44,087 nt of DNA from a virus (Duplodnaviria > Heunggongvirae > Uroviricota > Caudoviricetes), in the IMG/VR virus record IMGVR_UViG_2541047944_000002, positions 1 to 44,087 of that record; one strand, given 5' to 3'. The translations under genes and the position numbers were made by a program. Under the pieces are notes generated by a model. It was not told the DNA's origin and ran no database searches. It saw nothing but the letters and a program-made list of their open reading frames with translations. The first letter of the stretch is position 1, and every line of letters starts with the position of its first letter. This document shows, in pieces, positions 2,603 to 19,697 of this stretch.

Positions 2603-3655
2603 TCAGGAGCCGATATATTCTGGTTTCATATCTGTCAGTGTCGTTTTATACGCCTCATATAATTCTCCCAGATGTGGTCGTGCAGCATTCAGCGTATTTT
2701 CCAGAGCAGTAAATTTTTGTTCTGCTTCCGGATCACCTGATGAAGGCAGGTCATTTATCATCTTCTCAATACGGGCAATAGCATTGAGACGGTGATGACG
2801 CTGAACCACTTTTCCTTTAAGTTCCGTATAGAGAGCGCCAAGTGTATTTTTATGCTCTTCCACTTCCTGCCGAAGTGCTGTTGTTTCTCCGGTGCTTTGT
2901 GCCTGCTCAATACGTTCACGGAAAGCACTGATCCAGTTTTCCCCGACATCCTGCTCAATAATTGTTGTTTCACGTTCCGCACGGCAGGCGGATGTGTTTT
3001 TATGTTCCTGAACCGGATTAATGATTTTTTCCTGTGGTTCGTCCAGTTCGTCCCGGGTGTACACTCCAAGAATCACTTCAGGGCAATAAAGGCGCGCCCA
3101 GCGTTTCAGTGCCAGATAGGCAAGCTGCTGACGAGGATCATCGGCCCATAACGTTGAGTTACGTGTTCTGGCCTGCGCCAGAAGTAACTCCAGTACGCGT
3201 GGTTTGCTCTCTCCGCGTAGTGTTGCCTGGACGCGAACTCCGATCCCGTTTTCATCGACCAGCTTCCAGCCAGGTACACGATATTCTTTCCCTTTGTCGT
3301 TCTTCCTGATTTCAAATTTCCCGATAATTTTTTCCCACGGCCCGAACCAGTCATATTCAATACGCCCGGTTAACGGCCCACGAGTACTGATTACGGCATT
3401 AACCAGTTGCGCTTCATATCCGAGTACACCATTCACAACGAAAGTTTTCTGAGCTACTGCGTAAGGGTTCATTTGCCACTGCATCGCCTGCATGGTGATG
3501 GCCATGCAGTCTGATGGATTTCCCCGGAGGTGTTCCGGTACAGTAGCCATGCCGGAAGCCATTACCTGAGAAAACGTCTGAATTGCAGCCAGAGACTGAG
3601 GGCTGAAAACCGCAACATTAGAGTTAATATTTTCTTGTTGAGTTAATTCGTTCAT
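2603..3655 (-). CDS. recT: RecT/Bet-family single-strand annealing recombinase
   Basis: 350-aa ORF with GGAGG-type RBS, directly downstream of the recE-like exonuclease in Rac-like order. Family call from synteny plus general resemblance, not a verified alignment. Confidence 0.6.
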   Translation of the reverse strand: MNELTQQENINSNVAVFSPQSLAAIQTFSQVMASGMATVPEHLRGNPSDCMAITMQAMQWQMNPYAVAQKTFVVNGVLGYEAQLVNAVISTRGPLTGRIEYDWFGPWEKIIGKFEIRKNDKGKEYRVPGWKLVDENGIGVRVQATLRGESKPRVLELLLAQARTRNSTLWADDPRQQLAYLALKRWARLYCPEVILGVYTRDELDEPQEKIINPVQEHKNTSACRAERETTIIEQDVGENWISAFRERIEQAQSTGETTALRQEVEEHKNTLGALYTELKGKVVQRHHRLNAIARIEKMINDLPSSGDPEAEQKFTALENTLNAARPHLGELYEAYKTTLTDMKPEYIGS

Positions 3656-3666
3656 TGTGTCCTTCC

Positions 3667-6600
3667 TCAGATGCTCAGTGCTTCAAGACGACGAAGATCA
3701 AAGTCGTTTAATTCGTCGGTATAACTTTCGGTAATCGGTGCTGGCCAGTTGTTTGTCTCCAGCGCTTCGTTTATCTGGTGTAGCGTCCGGCGATATTCCT
3801 GTCGACCAAGTTCAAGGAGTTCCTGCGAGGCTTCCACGACTGCCACCCAGTGATAGCCAGCATCTTTGTTGACGAAGATCCAGAAAAATTTGTCCAGGTT
3901 TGCCACATCGCAATACATTGCGGCGCTGAGGTGATAATCACGCTCAATAATTTCACGGTGCAGGCGATCTTTAAGTCGTTCCTGCCGCACATAACCGAGG
4001 CTGACTGACTTCACGTCAGCGCAAATGCTTTCGTATGGCAGCCGGATTTCGATATCAGGACGGACCCTGATTTCCAGCCCGGTTTCTTCATCAAACCCGA
4101 AATAGCTGATTTCAGATTTGCGATCCGGGTGGTTGAGTAGCCTTGCTGCATCGGTATTGTTTTGCAGTGCCGCGTGAATATTTTTTGCCTGTTCATACAT
4201 ATCCGGACTGATAAACGTTTTCCCGGCGTTTTCTTCTTGCTGGCGTTTTTGCCAGTCCTCCAGTGTCACCAGTTCCGGGCGAATTTTCCGTGCGATTTCG
4301 GTTAATTGCTCTTTTGTGCCACTGATGTTGTAAGGCAAAGATTTAGCACGTTCTTTTTTTGCCAGTTCTGGATCTACAGTTTCAATTTGATCCAGAAGCT
4401 GCTCCCGTGCTCCACTGGTTTTCAACAGAGGAGGGAGGCTTGCGTTGTATTCTTTAATACAGGCTTTCATTGCTGATGCTGTGTGTTTTTCCCCCTCAGG
4501 AATACGCCGAAATTCCACCGGAAGCGAACCGTAAAGGATGCCTGTTTCTTCGGCCCCAGCACTTACAGACAGTGGCTGTATAAGAGTGCTGTTGTAGCTT
4601 TCGATCCACTCTTTCATCTGCTCTGGTGTCATCAGTGCTGGCAGACTGGCATTGTGTTTTTTAATGATGGCGATCAGTTCGTTAGAAGTAGTAACCACAT
4701 ATTCAGGAACCGGTACCGGAATGGCATATTCATCAGCGAATTTATCCGTTTCCAGAACATAGCTGTGAATGATCCGCCCACGCAGCAGTGCATCACTTTC
4801 CTCGTTCGGAATAGTTCCGGCAATGTGCCGCCCGTGGTAATACATCAGGCTGATACGGGCATCCTTCAGCATCGTGCTGCTTATTCCGTTGGCGGAGTGA
4901 TAAACCTCGTTCGGGAGGTTTTCATAGCGGCCTGGCTCGAAATATGACGGCCACATGATTTCAGTTGCTACAGGAGCTGACGCTTCGCCAGTTTCATCAC
5001 TGCAATTGCGATGCGGATCGCTGTCAGCATTCTCATTGTGCGGATGTTCAGCGCCTTCCATTTTCTCCGGCTCATTTTCCCGAACTTCAACCTGATTCTC
5101 GTCATCGAATGTTTCCTGATATGTTGCGTCGCCCATCACCGCACCACAGTCAGGGCAGTTATCCCCGCCAGACTGACCGCAGGCATTGCAAACTTTTTCC
5201 ACTTCCTGTTGCGCCACTGGTTCAGGCTGTTTCGTTTCTGGCTCGTTTTGTAACGCATTTGGGCTGTTTTGTTCCGCTTTCTGGTCGTTCTGTTCCGATT
5301 CTTGTTGGTTCTGGTTCACTGAATCGCGGGTTTCAATCCCCTTCACCCATTTCGGATCATTCGGGTCGCTAATCCCCTCAACAAATTCTCCGCGAGAGGC
5401 AGCCAGCAATTTGTCGGCATCGACAGGATTTTTGGGCGGAATGGTTTTCCGGGCTTCATGAAGTTCTGCCCGCAGTTTCTGATATTTCGCATCAACAGAA
5501 TTTACCTGTGACTGAGCATCCAGCGGCTGCGTGTCCTGATGATGTTCAGTTGCATCCGGTTCCACTGTTTCAGCCGTTGCCTGTTCATCTGCCATTGCGC
5601 AAGATGGTTGCGGTTTTTCTTCATCATCCTGTTTTTCTTCTTCTGTTACCCGCTGCGGCATCGGGGCAGAGGAGCGACCGCAGGCAATATCCACGATTTC
5701 CGGATCAGGGTTGGCATGATCGGTTTCAGTCAGTACTTTGTTCAGATATTCAGTGACGTGTGCGGGGATAACCTCGATCCCAATTGGTGCTTCTTTTACG
5801 GACGCAACCACGATGGCGCGGGAATAATCCAGCCCGCCAGGCATGGCGATGAATTTGTCGCGGAAAACAGAAAAGGGCGGTTTATTTTCAGCGATAATTT
5901 CCTCGACACGTTTAGCGTGTGCCGGATGAAGGTTATAAATGTCCACGTCCATTGAACGGGCCAGTACGCCAGTGGCTACATCGCGTGCCAGTGACGTCAG
6001 ATCGTGGACGAAACCTTCGCCGCGATCGGTGAGGTTCCCGCCGCCAGCATTAGCACCGGAAGCCGTGCGAGTGATGCGTGAAACACGATTTCCTTTCATC
6101 CACTCTTTTGTCAGCAGACCGCGATCGGTGTAGTCTGCGTCCAGGTATGCTTCGAAAAAAGCAGTCATCAGCCCCAGACTTGAATTGCCTGGATTAGGGA
6201 AAACTTTGTCAGTATCACGAACCAGTCTGTGAAGATCGCGAATCTCCAGCAGGTCGAGCAGGCTGGTTTTGTGGGAAACAGCCAGGGCAGTAACAGCTGG
6301 TAGTTCTTCAGCCCGTGCAATATGTAATGTCTGGAGTTCGTCGCGTGAAACGTGCGTTACCGGTTTTTCGCTGCCGTGTTGAGCAAGCCAGCGAATGGGC
6401 AGCTCTTGGCCAGAAATCGGGAGTAGCATATTCTCCTCAATCTCAGTCATGTCTTCGCCATTAACATTGGTATTGTCAGTGCTGGCTGGTTTGTCCTGCG
6501 CAGAGGATGAGGGCGCGATAAATACCATTGTGATGCCATCTTCCCCGCCTTTTTCGTAACGGTTGCAGAATTCCGTATCAAATACGCCTTCTGGTGGAAG

Positions 6601-15669: not shown

Positions 15670-15784
15670 AAACGGTTTGCGGGAAAAGGAGAGTTAAGTA
15701 GAATTGCTGCGGGTGCTTGAGGCTATCTGCCTCAGGCATGAACACCAAAAGGCAGATAGAGAAAAGCCCCAGTTAACATTACGC

Positions 15785-15850
15785 GTCCGGCAAGACGCTT
15801 AACATTAATCTGAGGCTCAATCTATGAACGGCAAATCTAGGTTAGCCTCT
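15785..15850 (-). ncRNA. sok: Putative Sok-like antisense RNA (approximate coordinates)
   Basis: Inferred from hok/mok organisation: antisense partner expected opposite the mok start/SD region; candidate minus-strand TTGCCT-17-TAACCT promoter just right of it. Not directly verifiable by eye. Confidence 0.3.
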
Positions 15851-16036
15851 TACGCGCCGAAAGGCAAGGAGAAGCAGGCTATGAAGCAGCAAAAGGCGAT
15901 GTTAGTCGCCCTGATCGTCATCTGTATTACCGTCATAGTGACGGCACTGGTAACGAGGAAAGACCTCTGCGAGGTACGAATCCGAACCGGCCAGACGGAG
16001 GTCGCTGTCTTCACAGCTTACGAACCTGAGGAGTAA
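15824..16036 (+). CDS. mok: Mok-like in-frame leader ORF of the hok locus
   Basis: 70-codon ORF sharing frame and stop with hok, as for mokC/hokC in K-12 (recalled). Confidence 0.5.
   Translation: MNGKSRLASYAPKGKEKQAMKQQKAMLVALIVICITVIVTALVTRKDLCEVRIRTGQTEVAVFTAYEPEE
15881..16036 (+). CDS. hok: Hok/Gef-family type I toxin
   Basis: MKQQKAMLVALIVICITVIVTALVTRKDLCEVRIRTGQTEVAVFTAYEPEE: 51 aa, single TM helix, near match to recalled HokC/Gef. Confidence 0.8.
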   Translation: MKQQKAMLVALIVICITVIVTALVTRKDLCEVRIRTGQTEVAVFTAYEPEE

Positions 16037-17195: not shown

Positions 17196-17485
17196 TGGTG
17201 GATTTACGTAAAGCGGCAAAAGGTCAGATGTGTACAGTCAGAATTCCTGGCTACTGCAATCACAATCCCGAAACGTCCGTGCTGGCGCATTACAGGCTGG
17301 CGGGGACGTGTGGAACAGCGACAAAACCACACGATATGCAGGCAGCGATTGCCTGCAGCTCATGCCACGATTTAATCGACGGGCGGGTAAAAACCAGCGA
17401 TTACACCAAAGAAGAATTACGCCTGATGCATGCAGAAGGTGTTTTTCGCACACAAGAAATCTGGAGAAAGGAAGGTTATTTATGA
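17195..17485 (+). CDS. YbcO-like putative nuclease (DUF1364)
   Basis: Cys/His-rich 96-aa ORF (CTVRIPGYCNHNPETSVLAHY...CSSCHD) recalled as resembling DLP12 YbcO. Confidence 0.6.
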   Translation: MVDLRKAAKGQMCTVRIPGYCNHNPETSVLAHYRLAGTCGTATKPHDMQAAIACSSCHDLIDGRVKTSDYTKEELRLMHAEGVFRTQEIWRKEGYL

Positions 17486-18036
17486 TTTACCCAACAAATA
17501 CAGGCAAAAGCGGGGAACACCTTCGTCTCACCACGCTGGAAAGTGTCTGGATTCAGGGAAAACTGCGCATGTGGGGGCGCTGGTCATATATTGGCGGCGG
17601 TAAGACGGGAAATATGTTTAACCAGTTGCTGACCTCTAAAAAGCTGACAAAAACGGCAATTAACGAGGCGCTCCGGAGGATGAAAAAAGCAGGTCTGGAC
17701 AAACCTGAACTTGAGGCTTTTTTGCGGGATATGATCAACGGCAAGCAAAAAACCTGGCTGGTGCATTGTACTGATGCAGAGGCGTTATGCATTGATCGGG
17801 TGATTAGTGAAGTGCTGGCAGAACACCCAGGATTGATTTGTATCCTCCGGCAACGATATGAAGGGAGAGGGATGACTAAGCGAAAAATGGCTGAATTGCT
17901 GAATGACGCACACCCTGAGTGGTGTTTCCGGACGTGCTGCAGTCGGGTAGATGTATGGCTAAATCTTGCTGAATATATGCTCTATCTGCCGATGCGTGAT
18001 GCATTCTCTTCCGGGGATCTAAAAACCGTTTGTTGA
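17482..18036 (+). CDS. Late-gene antiterminator Q
   Basis: ATG at 17482 (MIYPTNTGKSG...), ATGA overlap with ybcO-like stop; immediately followed by a strong promoter and short terminated leader. Confidence 0.6.
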   Translation: MIYPTNTGKSGEHLRLTTLESVWIQGKLRMWGRWSYIGGGKTGNMFNQLLTSKKLTKTAINEALRRMKKAGLDKPELEAFLRDMINGKQKTWLVHCTDAEALCIDRVISEVLAEHPGLICILRQRYEGRGMTKRKMAELLNDAHPEWCFRTCCSRVDVWLNLAEYMLYLPMRDAFSSGDLKTVC

Positions 18037-18062
18037 CTCAATCTGTTATCCGGGGCTATATT
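18033..18062 (+). promoter_or_regulatory. Late promoter PR-prime (TTGACT-18-TATATT) with qut-like leader
   Basis: -35 TTGACT overlaps the Q stop codon; -10 TATATT 18 bp downstream; two hairpins in the leader. Confidence 0.5.
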
Positions 18063-18124
18063 CCTCACGCGCCAGCAAAATCTGGCGTCGGGATTGGCGT
18101 CCCGGATGTTTACGGAGCGATATG

Positions 18125-18146
18125 AGACGCGCCCGCGTCTTTTTTC
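18125..18146 (+). terminator. tR-prime-like intrinsic terminator
   Basis: agacgcg-cc-cgcgtct followed by tttttt, about 65 nt downstream of the promoter. Confidence 0.55.
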
Positions 18147-18308
18147 ATATCGTTTGCACAGTCACATTCGCGATTTATGGCGGGCTGTGTGGGGGAGCCG
18201 AAAGGCTCGCCGGTTTCCGTACCCGGTTACGCCAACCCTGCACAGTTCGCCACCAGTTCGATTGGCGTCGTCGGTGGCGATAATTTCCAAATGTACGGAG
18301 TTATCGTT

Positions 18309-18866
18309 ATGACCACTCAAATCTCTGTTGAAACTCTCTCCCCGATCACCCATAACCAGATTCCTGTTATTACCACCGAACTTTTGGCGCAGCTTTACGG
18401 CACTGAGCCGGTGCGTATTCGCCAGAATCATCATGAGAACAAAGTACGCTTCGTTGAAGGGAAACACTTTTTCAAAGTTGTTGGTAATGACCTTAAAGAA
18501 TTGCGGGTCGCTTTAAACTACTCACAAAATCCAGTTTCACCCAAAGCCCGCTCCCTCATCCTCTGGACAGAACGAGGCGCAGCACGCCACGCCAAAATGC
18601 TCGAAACCGATCAGGCATGGGATGTGTTCGAAAAACTGGAAGACTGCTATTTCAGTCAAAAGGATCCGTCAACGCCAGTTTCATGCCAGAAAAGTTACGA
18701 CACGCGAGTTCTCTGTTATCAGAGAGGCGGTGTCACTGTTTCCACAATTCAGTTACGGGATGATGATATTGTTATTTCCCTTGAGTCATGGCTGGAACTG
18801 GCGAGAGCCAATGGTTGGTTTGTTGTTCGCAGAGATAAACTGGTGGAAAGGTTGATGCAGCTTTAA
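18309..18866 (+). CDS. ORF6N/Bro-N-like DNA-binding protein (antirepressor-like cargo gene)
   Basis: ATG at 18309 with GGAG RBS; family call from memory and uncertain; sits between tR-prime and the holin. Confidence 0.45.
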   Translation: MTTQISVETLSPITHNQIPVITTELLAQLYGTEPVRIRQNHHENKVRFVEGKHFFKVVGNDLKELRVALNYSQNPVSPKARSLILWTERGAARHAKMLETDQAWDVFEKLEDCYFSQKDPSTPVSCQKSYDTRVLCYQRGGVTVSTIQLRDDDIVISLESWLELARANGWFVVRRDKLVERLMQL

Positions 18867-18962
18867 AAAAGTTCTTGCATTTTTGCACATAAACTGCTTC
18901 AATTCCGGTACGCTTCGCAAAGCTGTATCGCGAGGCGAACCAAGCGCATGAACTTTACCAGA

Positions 18963-18987
18963 ACCCGCCATTGAGCGGGTTTTGTTG
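18963..18987 (+). terminator. Intrinsic terminator after the ORF6N-like gene
   Basis: acccgc-cattga-gcgggt followed by tttgttgttt. Confidence 0.55.
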
Positions 18988-19215
18988 TTTCTGACGGATA
19001 GAAAAATGAAATAGCTAAATAAAAAGAATGCATTGGATGCCATATATTGGCAACGTGACGACAGCGTTAATCTGGCCGGGCTCCAATTGCGACGTAGTGA
19101 GGGAGAGGAAGCGTAAAGCATCACTGAGTTACGGTTAGCACCCGGTTTAACGCGTAAGTGGCCTGATAAAGAGATAGTGCGCCGCGGCACTCACAGCGGC
19201 AACGATTAACTGACC

Positions 19216-19237
19216 TCGGCATTTGCCGGGGTTTTTT
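19216..19237 (+). terminator. Weak intrinsic terminator upstream of the lysis cassette
   Basis: Short stem cggc-attt-gccg then gggttttttatt. Confidence 0.35.
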
Positions 19238-19361
19238 ATTTAAGGCCGCAGACAGGCCCAATTAGTGCAACGCCTTTCCCCGTTTCCGCTCCTGGAATAT
19301 TCGGGGATTTTTTATTCCCTCAATTTGCACCCGCGATATGTGCGAGGTGAGAGATGATGAA

Positions 19362-19697
19362 ATGCCTCATAACCCAAATACTTGGCCGGACTGGCTGGAG
19401 TTGTTTCAGAGCTGGTGGCGTGGAGACACTCCGCTGGGCGCAGTGATTATGTCGATCGTTATGGCTGGTTTGCGCATCGCCTATTTTGGCGGTGATGGGG
19501 GCTGGAAACGAAAAACGCTTGAGATTTTGCTCTGTGGTGCCCTGACGCTGACCTTTGCATCCGCGCTTGAGTATGTCGGATGGCCTAAATCACTTTCTGT
19601 TGCCATTGGTGGTGGGGTGGGGCTGATTGGTGTTGATGCTATTCGTGGTGCGGCAATGAGGGTCATCGGTAACAAGTTCGGTGCCCATAAGGAGTAA
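19362..19697 (+). CDS. Holin (lambda S-like); possible dual start with in-frame ATG at 19338
   Basis: Multiple hydrophobic segments; RBS before ATG 19362; directly upstream of endolysin. Confidence 0.65.
   Translation: MPHNPNTWPDWLELFQSWWRGDTPLGAVIMSIVMAGLRIAYFGGDGGWKRKTLEILLCGALTLTFASALEYVGWPKSLSVAIGGGVGLIGVDAIRGAAMRVIGNKFGAHKE

Follow-up and report, generated by a model that had tools for sequence, protein, structure and literature searches.

The 44,087-nucleotide stretch analysed here (IMG/VR record IMGVR_UViG_2541047944_000002, positions 1 to 44,087; hereafter the window) is an Escherichia coli lambdoid prophage, and the present work concerns the 1329-nucleotide (nt) interval between its Q-like antiterminator gene and its holin gene (18033-19361). 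This interval is 100% identical to the chromosome of the pig strain PEC148, in which RefSeq places three coding sequences, a DUF1133 protein (17482-18036), an "ORF6N domain-containing protein" (18309-18866) and a lambda-family holin (19362-19697), and annotates no RNA genes within the interval. A promoter, a terminated short leader, the ORF6N gene and a non-coding stretch are all found where a first-pass annotation of the window had placed them. Taken as a whole, the interval very probably comprises an antirepressor RNA-switch cassette of the IsrK/P1 C4 type directly after Q, followed by a late leader that contains a conserved RNA motif. The elements of the cassette, in window coordinates, are the following; the names of the c4 and a1b1 motifs are those of Weinberg et al. 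(2010; PMC2864571), and sRNA, ORF and aa stand for small RNA, open reading frame and amino acids.

18033..18062, plus strand: sigma-70-like promoter of the isrK type, TTGACT, 18 nt, TATATT; the -35 element overlaps the Q stop codon
18056..18108, plus strand: c4-a1b1 motif (RF03163), two hairpins, 65 nt upstream of C4; 52.2 bits against a gathering score of 46.7
18069..18145, plus strand: IsrK sRNA homologue (RF01394), model positions 1-77 of 77; 75.6 bits against a gathering score of 50
18094-18100, plus strand: b1 (UUGGCGU), in the loop of hairpin 2 of c4-a1b1/IsrK
18173..18257, plus strand: C4-type antisense RNA (RF01695); 77.6 bits against a gathering score of 45
18177..18308, plus strand: reading frame equivalent to orf45, overlapping the C4 gene and running without a stop, in frame, into ant (229-aa ORF)
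18229-18238, plus strand: b' (ACGCCAACCC), in the single-stranded 3' part of C4; contains ACGCCAA
18260..18268, plus strand: b2 target (GAUUGGCGU), complementary to b', with UUGGCGU at 18262-18268
18309..18866, plus strand: antirepressor gene ant, 185 aa (186 codons with the stop), with an N-terminal ORF6N domain (E = 3e-20)

The three RNA elements all score above the Rfam gathering thresholds and follow each other on the plus strand in the canonical order, c4-a1b1/isrK and then C4. From these matches it follows that the short terminated leader is an IsrK sRNA and that a C4-type antisense RNA is encoded in the 165 nt preceding the ORF. The first-pass annotation had called the former a PR'-like promoter with a short leader and had passed over the gap before the ORF; what lies there is the cassette's own isrK promoter, the IsrK sRNA with c4-a1b1, and the C4-type RNA gene. 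The IsrK homologue ends in an intrinsic terminator (stem 18124-18141, then a U-run), and together promoter and terminator predict a discrete RNA of about 77 nt. Promoter-like sites are not above chance in the region when counted alone (one found, 3.6 ± 1.6 in shuffles). The promoter at 18033 aligns with the experimentally active isrK promoter of Gifsy-1, the activity of which was demonstrated with lacZ data (PMC4825925), and both hexamers are identical. The predicted fold of the C4-like RNA is that of the family, a long stem closing over two internal hairpins (-45.9 kcal/mol, z = -4.6).

The product of ant aligns over its whole length with PHROG 2379, "anti-repressor" (E = 3e-94), and is 57% identical to Gifsy-1 AnrP over its full length (E = 7e-66). 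By this similarity the ORF at 18309-18866 is an AnrP-type antirepressor and the orthologue of Gifsy-1 AnrP, which bears out its earlier description as antirepressor-like; the ORF6N domain seen in the first pass is present as well, and the stated length of 186 aa includes the stop codon. Among the small ORFs of the cassette, no Pfam match and no icd homologue were identified. One of them, a 53-aa ORF at 18122-18283 that overlaps IsrK and C4, weakly matches a PHROG of unknown function (a 57-residue profile) and is probably an annotation artefact.

The complementarities within the cassette were compared in eight loci: the window, four E. coli relatives, pPE4, VT2-Sakai and Gifsy-1. Among them b1, in the loop of hairpin 2 of IsrK, and b2, just downstream of C4, share one sequence of 7-8 nt, and the b' segment of C4 is its complement. 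Four classes of b sequence occur (UUGGCGU, UUAGGAAC, UUGGAAC and UUAGCAC). At the same locus, b' can pair with b1 and with b2 over 7-8 contiguous Watson-Crick pairs, while across classes only 3-5 pairs are possible. b1, b' and b2 covary three ways across the four specificity classes, in agreement with the specificity logic of the P1/P7 c4 system. In the window b2 is situated about 29 nt upstream of the Shine-Dalgarno sequence of ant (GGAG, 18297-18300) and does not overlap it. The loop a1 (GCAAAAUC) is invariant and partly complementary to the 5' end of C4 (GAUUUAUGG), a tentative pairing that shows no covariation. RNAduplex predictions with the whole RNAs were uninformative, giving long artificial duplexes.

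A hybrid cassette is present in the avian pathogenic E. coli strain E19057 (APEC E19057; locus L007, ~660-860, homologous to window 18090-18270). Its b1 is UUGGCGU, while its own b' and b2 belong to the UUAGGAAC class, leaving only three Watson-Crick pairs between b1 and b'. Judged by these sequences, the IsrK of E19057 is not expected to titrate the C4 of its own cassette through the b site.

For Gifsy-1, Hershko-Shalev et al. (2016; PMC4825925) reported that anrP is transcribed from the isrK promoter. Translation of the read-through mRNA is blocked, the middle of IsrK being paired with about 30 nt of orf45 (G28/G31 with C162/C159), and this block is relieved by short IsrK acting in trans, after which AnrP raises the expression of antQ and induces the prophage (PMC4825925). 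Hfq binding and the trans-activation of antirepressor translation by IsrK are known only from these Gifsy-1 experiments, and the orf45 region also gives rise, by processing, to the stable RNA STnc1160 (PMC4825925). We find that this orf45/STnc1160 region is a match to the Rfam C4 family. The window cassette shares with Gifsy-1 the order Q, c4-a1b1/isrK, C4 and anrP between Q and the lysis genes, the b specificity class UUGGCGU/ACGCCAA with the b1 loop of IsrK, and a leader that is 86% identical, promoter hexamers included. The two differ in that the window Q is of the DUF1133 type whereas the Gifsy-1 Q is annotated as similar to that of phage 82, and in what surrounds the cassette: IsrI, IsrJ and a tRNA are absent from the window, where a different promoter/leader/terminator unit and the conserved motif follow ant.

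The immI region of P1/P7 (c4, icd, ant1/2) resembles the window cassette in that the antisense RNA is carried on the same transcript as its targets, these flank the RNA gene (a1/b1 before it, b2 after it), and the regulated gene is an antirepressor. The difference in specificity between P1 and P7 is set by short covarying sequences. The Rfam models RF01695 and RF03163 also match the window cassette. On the other hand, P1 is a plasmid prophage and the window a lambdoid one, the window antirepressor is of the ORF6N type, and the upstream target segment is predicted to be released in the window as a discrete terminated sRNA, IsrK.

The leader of the cassettes in Stx phages (VT2-Sakai ant, 933W-like), comprising promoter, IsrK and C4, is about 80% identical to that of the window (86% for VT2-Sakai, promoter hexamers included), and the N-terminal domain of Ant is about 80% identical over 100-120 aa. 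There, however, the cassette is located between ninE and roi, in the nin region of the early-right operon, and not after Q, and the VT2-Sakai Ant is longer (244 aa) with another C-terminal domain. In Sakai Sp10 and in our loci L117, L074 and L044 the DUF1133 Q gene leads straight into the downstream late-leader unit, with no ant cassette in between. To judge by these gene orders, the antirepressor cassette is mobile cargo and not a standard late gene, as had been suggested in the first pass: its ORF is missing after Q in related DUF1133-Q prophages and is found in the nin region of Stx phages.

The record of "Actinobacillus phage vB_Apl-pPE4" (pPE4; L005, PP818812.1) contains a region, 2968-4060, that is 93% identical to the window over Q, IsrK, C4 and ant. 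The record further includes hok and genes for DUF1367, DUF1364 and DUF1133 proteins, and the assignment of Actinobacillus pleuropneumoniae as host looks doubtful. In the pPE4 and VT2-Sakai records small ORFs, probably artefacts, are annotated over IsrK and C4. In the annotated records inspected, the three cassette RNAs are either unmarked or have spurious small ORFs called over them, and the window cassette is an unannotated further copy of a known system. That it is an antirepressor switch of the IsrK/C4 type is, from its elements and their order, very likely.

The individual steps by which the cassette works are likely to be those of Gifsy-1 and P1. A constitutive promoter would make the 77-nt terminated IsrK RNA carrying a1/b1, and read-through transcripts would run on through the C4-type RNA and b2 into ant. 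Pairing of b' of C4 with b1 and/or b2 would keep the long transcript untranslated. Free short IsrK would compete in trans for b', upon which the upstream start site would open and Ant would be made; Ant would then inactivate the prophage repressor, with induction and expression of Q and the late genes as the outcome. RNA processing, translational control and inactivation of the repressor are the steps that we infer by homology.

An alternative is that the promoter at 18033 is simply the PR' late promoter, the 77-nt RNA a mere terminated late leader like lambda 6S RNA, and the ORF a passive cargo gene that needs Q antitermination. Late-promoter fashion, the site follows Q directly with its -35 element overlapping the Q stop codon; the isrK promoter of Gifsy-1 also lies directly behind a Q gene. 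The window Q gene, moreover, is a mosaic that over its first ~300 nt shares about 95% identity with the Q of Sakai Sp10 (L003 1965-2519), while its C-terminal half has diverged and differs from the Qs that precede the other promoter type (its last ~60 nt cannot be aligned to the Sp10 Q). This divergence coincides with a different type of promoter downstream of the window Q, and it would fit a specificity pair of Q and promoter, which the sequences suggest may exist. The same promoter-IsrK-C4-ant unit is nevertheless found in the nin region of VT2-Sakai, far from Q, and in Gifsy-1 it follows a Q of another family. Furthermore, the leader is recognized by the models of two curated RNA families and contains a b1 loop that covaries with C4, and downstream of ant there is a second promoter/leader/terminator unit that is homologous to what directly follows DUF1133 Q elsewhere. 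We therefore regard a plain PR' reading as doubtful. It is compatible with the cassette model, since Q could additionally read through the IsrK terminator.

The region downstream of ant, together with the two genes that bound the interval, contains the following features.

18875..18903, plus strand: candidate canonical late promoter, TTGCAT (18875-18880), 17 nt, TTCAAT (18898-18903), with an extended -10 TG (TGCTTCAAT, 18895-18903)
18906..18993, plus strand: short structured leader (~80 nt) and strong intrinsic terminator (stem 18959-18984, then a U-run); fold z = -3.5
19038..19164, plus strand: conserved pseudoknotted RNA motif, ~125 nt; covariance-model match 19052-19164, 114.8 bits, E = 6e-24
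19181..19240, plus strand: hairpin (19181-19200) and strong intrinsic terminator (stem 19212-19233, U-run) after the motif, kept in late-leader and phage-plasmid copies
19277..19314, plus strand: weak third terminator-like hairpin with U-run, just upstream of the holin ribosome-binding site
17482..18036, plus strand: Q-like antiterminator gene of the DUF1133 type (Pfam DUF1133, E = 2e-106; weak Phage_antitermQ; PHROG 753, "Q-like")
19362..19697, plus strand: lambda-family holin, first of the lysis genes, bounding the interval; RefSeq start at 19362, with an in-frame ATG upstream at 19338

The non-coding stretch after ant extends from 18867 to the RefSeq holin start at 19362 (18867-19361, 495 nt). 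The first pass had described about 490 bp with two terminators; the stretch is as described, and it holds three terminator-like hairpins, strong ones at 18959-18984 and 19212-19233 and a weak one at 19290-19306. Terminator-like sites are enriched in the region (nine in a 3.5-kb scan, 3.4 ± 1.9 expected from shuffles). The candidate promoter at 18875-18903 falls below the threshold of the promoter scan and was recognized by homology and by reading of the sequence; the equivalent of its extended -10 in L117 is TGCTTGAAT. Over 18865-18983 the window shares 93-97% identity with DNA overlapping the 3' ends of DUF1133 Q genes, and the 1181 E. coli genomes that match part of the 495-nt query do so mostly in this segment. 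From this homology the unit at 18875-18993 is more likely the canonical late promoter, leader and terminator of the DUF1133 Q family, displaced by insertion of the cassette. The late-operon leader of DUF1133-Q prophages would accordingly be built from this promoter, the leader with its terminator, the motif of ~125 nt, one or two more terminators and the holin gene. In strain PEC399 (L008 1456-1635, approximately window 18864-19044) RefSeq places a 59-aa minus-strand hypothetical protein over the candidate late unit, which is probably an artefact.

The arrangement is reminiscent of lambda PR', 6S RNA and tR' and of the leader sRNA of the StxS type, in which a constitutive promoter abuts Q and gives a short terminated transcript, with more terminators before the lysis genes. 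For the unit at 18875-18993 the likeness is one of homology to Q-abutting DNA (Sp10, L117 and others), and for 18033-18145 it is one of position. The lambda PR' leader differs in that it has no sequence relationship to the units in the window, of which there are two in tandem, and in that Q-binding and pause elements are not recognizable for a DUF1133-type Q. Four terminators are annotated between the Q-like gene and the holin of HK639 (L132 16332-17165), where the window has three, and multiple terminators may be common in Q-to-holin leaders.

Within this late leader, the conserved motif at 19038-19164 is predicted to fold as follows.

19038-19052, plus strand: P0, a variable hairpin
19053-19056 with 19064-19067, plus strand: H1, a 4-bp hairpin with the loop GACGACN
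19059-19062 with 19075-19078, plus strand: pseudoknot B, the loop CGAC with GUCG 6-8 nt downstream
19081-19085 with 19101-19105, plus strand: Pb, YUCCC with GGGAR
19096-19100, plus strand: pseudoknot 2, AGUGA in the Pb loop with UCACU ~20 nt downstream
Downstream of Pb and pseudoknot 2, plus strand: a mini-hairpin that tolerates insertion of a 15-nt hairpin
Within 19038-19164, plus strand: H3, (C/U)GG-N7-CC(G/A), followed by the tail UUUAACGC

Among close relatives the stretch 19040-19237 is about 99% identical and therefore uninformative on structure. A block of ~185 nt (19054-19238) recurs on phage-plasmids of E. coli and Salmonella, and a Klebsiella plasmid and a Serratia symbiotica plasmid each carry its first ~120 nt. 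Further homologues were gathered by an exact-pattern scan with the most conserved 20-mer in two collections. In the species-representative genomes about 15 true loci from Enterobacterales and Pseudomonas were obtained among 25 matches, the rest being chance, and IMG/VR gave 90 loci. In total the motif is represented by 110 copies with 84 unique cores. In E. coli it is rare (37 of 5426 complete genomes), and the window has no second copy. The region is non-coding, with stops in all plus frames and indels of 1 and 2 nt within the core across homologues.

The fold was derived by anchor-based parsing and two alignments, and only its nested helices went into a covariance model. The model gives one match per locus in 99 of the 100 sources searched and none in HK022 or HK639. 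Over 69 distinct sequences, 91.9% of the cells are paired, compared with 37-48% when the partners are slid. Compensatory changes on both sides are seen in 17 of the 26 pairs (102 cells), and 0 of 500 shuffles reach any of five measures. The pseudoknot helices, although left out of the model, covary as well: CGAC:GUCG becomes AGAC:GUCU, and in the Serratia phage OS31 AGUGA:UCACU is replaced by CCAG:CUGG, four consecutive compensatory pairs. Six helices, two pseudoknots among them, are thus supported by covariation. A long-range minimum-free-energy fold (GCGUUAA:UUAACGC and GGYCGGG:CCCGGU) was rejected. It is 90% pairable, has no compensatory changes, is no better than shuffles and is broken wherever the alternative helices covary. 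An ops-like reading of GGCGACGTAGTG, which matches the RfaH ops consensus at 7 of 12 positions, is a lead only; pairing at the RNA level is favoured because the variable position correlates with a downstream RNA position.

The Rfam 15 matches in 18867-19337 are confined to sub-threshold, terminator-like parts of unrelated families, and the OS31 leader has none. The window motif region has no blastn match among 50,697 phage records, where a consensus-like copy finds only phage OS31, and a full-text literature search for strings of the motif sequence returned no paper. By these searches the motif is a candidate new, uncatalogued structured RNA family.

The genomic contexts were counted over 101 distinct motif loci. 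At 41 of them a cI-like repressor gene (HTH_3 and Peptidase_S24) lies upstream on the same strand and the motif is in the leader of the early-left operon. At 28 loci the upstream gene on the same strand is a DUF1133 Q and the motif is in the late leader, the ant cassette standing between them in 10 of the 28. The other 32 loci are on phage-plasmids, at contig ends or on the Serratia plasmid. The motif is always co-oriented with the flanking operon and stands at the head of long phage or plasmid operons. On plasmid pSsAf2.3-1 of Serratia symbiotica (L013 1914-2610), the only non-phage context seen, its immediate neighbours are a NusG-family gene on one side (Pfam NusG, E = 4e-16) and a secretion operon of the virB type on the other. 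In phage OS31 (Hendrixvirinae) the order is cI and a terminator, three operator repeats and PL, a C/A-rich stretch, a perfect boxA, the motif and a DUF1391 gene, and the motif starts about 185 nt after the predicted start of PL. In 30 of the 41 cI-context loci, and in seven others, the motif anchor is preceded at 145-320 nt by a perfect rrn-type boxA (GCTCTTTAACAA); none of the 28 Q-context loci has one. The OS31 boxA lies at L130 3455-3466, and 3% of random 360-nt windows contain a match with up to two mismatches. The first early-left gene is variable (DUF1391, N-like and Arg-rich, or assorted unknowns, with N-like genes in the minority), and its start codon is mostly at +142 to +158 from the motif anchor (for example in L017, L051, L058, L101 and L125), as if a mosaic junction lay at this start codon.

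These contexts favour a cis-acting element of operon leaders over an independent gene for an sRNA. The first-pass annotation had proposed that the stretch around 19040-19237 could encode a small RNA and had suggested a covariance search of it. The search did reveal helices with compensatory changes, in a conserved structured RNA that ends in a terminator, and what is wanting is a promoter for a discrete sRNA at 19040. A stand-alone, trans-acting sRNA made of the motif (19038-19164) and the terminator stem at 19212-19233 could explain why motif, hairpin and terminator travel jointly into phage-plasmids as a block of ~185 nt closed by a strong intrinsic terminator, and the late regions of prophages are known sources of sRNAs. 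No promoter-like site is present upstream of the motif in the window, however, and no -10 or -35 element is conserved across the aligned homologues. In the 41 early-left leaders no terminator follows the motif and the start of the first gene is nearly constant, and the co-orientation with the flanking operon, which is without exception, also counts against this explanation; we consider it improbable. That the conservation of 19038-19164 reflects a minus-strand protein gene or a DNA-level site instead of an RNA is very improbable indeed. A 134-aa minus-strand ORF (18786-19190) does span the region, similar minus-strand ORFs occur in 24 loci (cluster 2), and in PEC399 RefSeq has a minus-strand hypothetical protein just upstream of the motif. 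We nevertheless reject the 134-aa ORF: it has no match in PHROGs, the only library run on it, the 1- and 2-nt indels in the conserved core break its frame (the plus frames all contain stops), and the substitutions are compensatory in the manner of base pairs and not codon-like. Strict co-orientation with the operon likewise speaks against a symmetric DNA site.

As to what a leader element would do, it is possible, and we put it forward tentatively as the reading that we favour, that the motif belongs to an undescribed cis-acting leader RNA family acting on polymerase or termination factors, either as a new RNA for processive antitermination, put-like or Nus-dependent, or as a riboswitch-like sensor gating terminators or translation. 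The put RNAs of HK022 and HK639 are comparable in place: in at least 41 loci, including the isolated phage OS31, the motif has the putL position in the leader just downstream of PL, and HK639 has an annotated 126-nt "putL-like antiterminator RNA", similar in length, at the equivalent position. The window copy, for its part, is in the late leader, between intrinsic terminators. The neighbourhood of the NusG-family gene and the virB operon on the Serratia symbiotica plasmid, the perfect boxA in most of the cI-context loci, the scarcity of N-like first genes, and the invariant loop and junction nucleotides and pseudoknots, typical of partner-binding RNAs, are all in line with such a function. The motif is not, however, a put homologue. 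It lacks sequence and covariance-model similarity to the HK022 and HK639 put regions, including the site of the HK639 putL-like RNA; a put RNA consists of two stem-loops (PMC9378689), whereas the motif is pseudoknotted and has multiple helices; and the motif, unlike put, occurs in late-operon and plasmid leaders too. Other points against an antitermination role are the absence of boxA from all Q-context loci, the few loci that do encode N-like Arg-rich first genes, the expectation that a Q-modified polymerase should need no further antiterminator, and the lack of a known ligand or partner for the motif. A leader that affects RNA processing, RNA stability or translation of the first gene instead is, in our view, rather unlikely.

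Several findings weigh against our reading of the interval as an IsrK/C4-type cassette followed by a leader with a structured RNA. As regards the cassette, IsrJ (RF01393), which is present in Gifsy-1 (100 bits), has no match in the window even at E <= 10; no clear a2 site was found in the cassette, and complementarity of the a type is tentative; and of orf45 only the start codon, at 18177, is conserved, not the ORF itself. In the E. coli relatives the orf45 equivalent is 27-33 aa long and stops short of ant by 30-50 nt, only the 45-aa orf45 of Gifsy-1 overlaps the ant start codon (through ATGA), and in the window the frame is fused to ant. Judging from these frames, the coupling step must differ from that of Gifsy-1. 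Since the orf45 frame of the window runs into ant, initiation at the regulated upstream site would produce an N-terminally extended Ant and not coupling. As regards the motif, its thermodynamic fold is no better than that of shuffles (z = -0.6), its structure was derived from the same sequences in which the pairs were later counted, and the exact 20-mer anchor limits the diversity of the homologues. In addition, the window copy scores 114.8 bits, compared with 128-131 in close relatives, and has private mismatches in B and Pb. It alone, with the identical L072, has GCCG for GUCG, which gives an A.C mismatch in pseudoknot B, CUCCA for CUCCC, the only non-pair at that Pb position among the 69 sequences, and AUU for AUG/ACG. 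On account of these mismatches and the lower score, the window copy of the motif may be decaying.

Cassette or adjoining late-leader unit are widespread, 1603 of 5426 complete E. coli genomes (~30%) matching part of the 1329-nt interval; the whole interval is carried by only 15 of the 5426. Elsewhere in the window three further RNA loci are recognized at the level of the Rfam gathering scores: the RalA antitoxin sRNA at 2168-2346 on the plus strand (219.6 bits), Sok antisense RNA beside hokD at 15711-15886 on the plus strand, and the chromosomal pair SdsR/RyeB and SraC/RyeA at 462-606 on both strands, near the left end, which may mark the boundary between prophage and chromosome. The window contains no tRNA genes, the usual cargo after Q.

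With the cassette recognized, there is a testable way in which E. coli prophages, Stx phages among them, could be induced in a repressor-independent (SOS-independent) manner. The four b classes predict which cassettes can cross-talk, and the hybrid of E19057 is a natural test case. If the motif is functional, it would be a new structured RNA at two antitermination-dependent points of lambdoid phage development, and it could reveal a new control of transcription processivity or a means of sensing the state of the host. It would then head three kinds of operon: early-left and late ones in lambdoid prophages, and certain ones on plasmids, among them a type IV secretion operon with a NusG paralogue before it.

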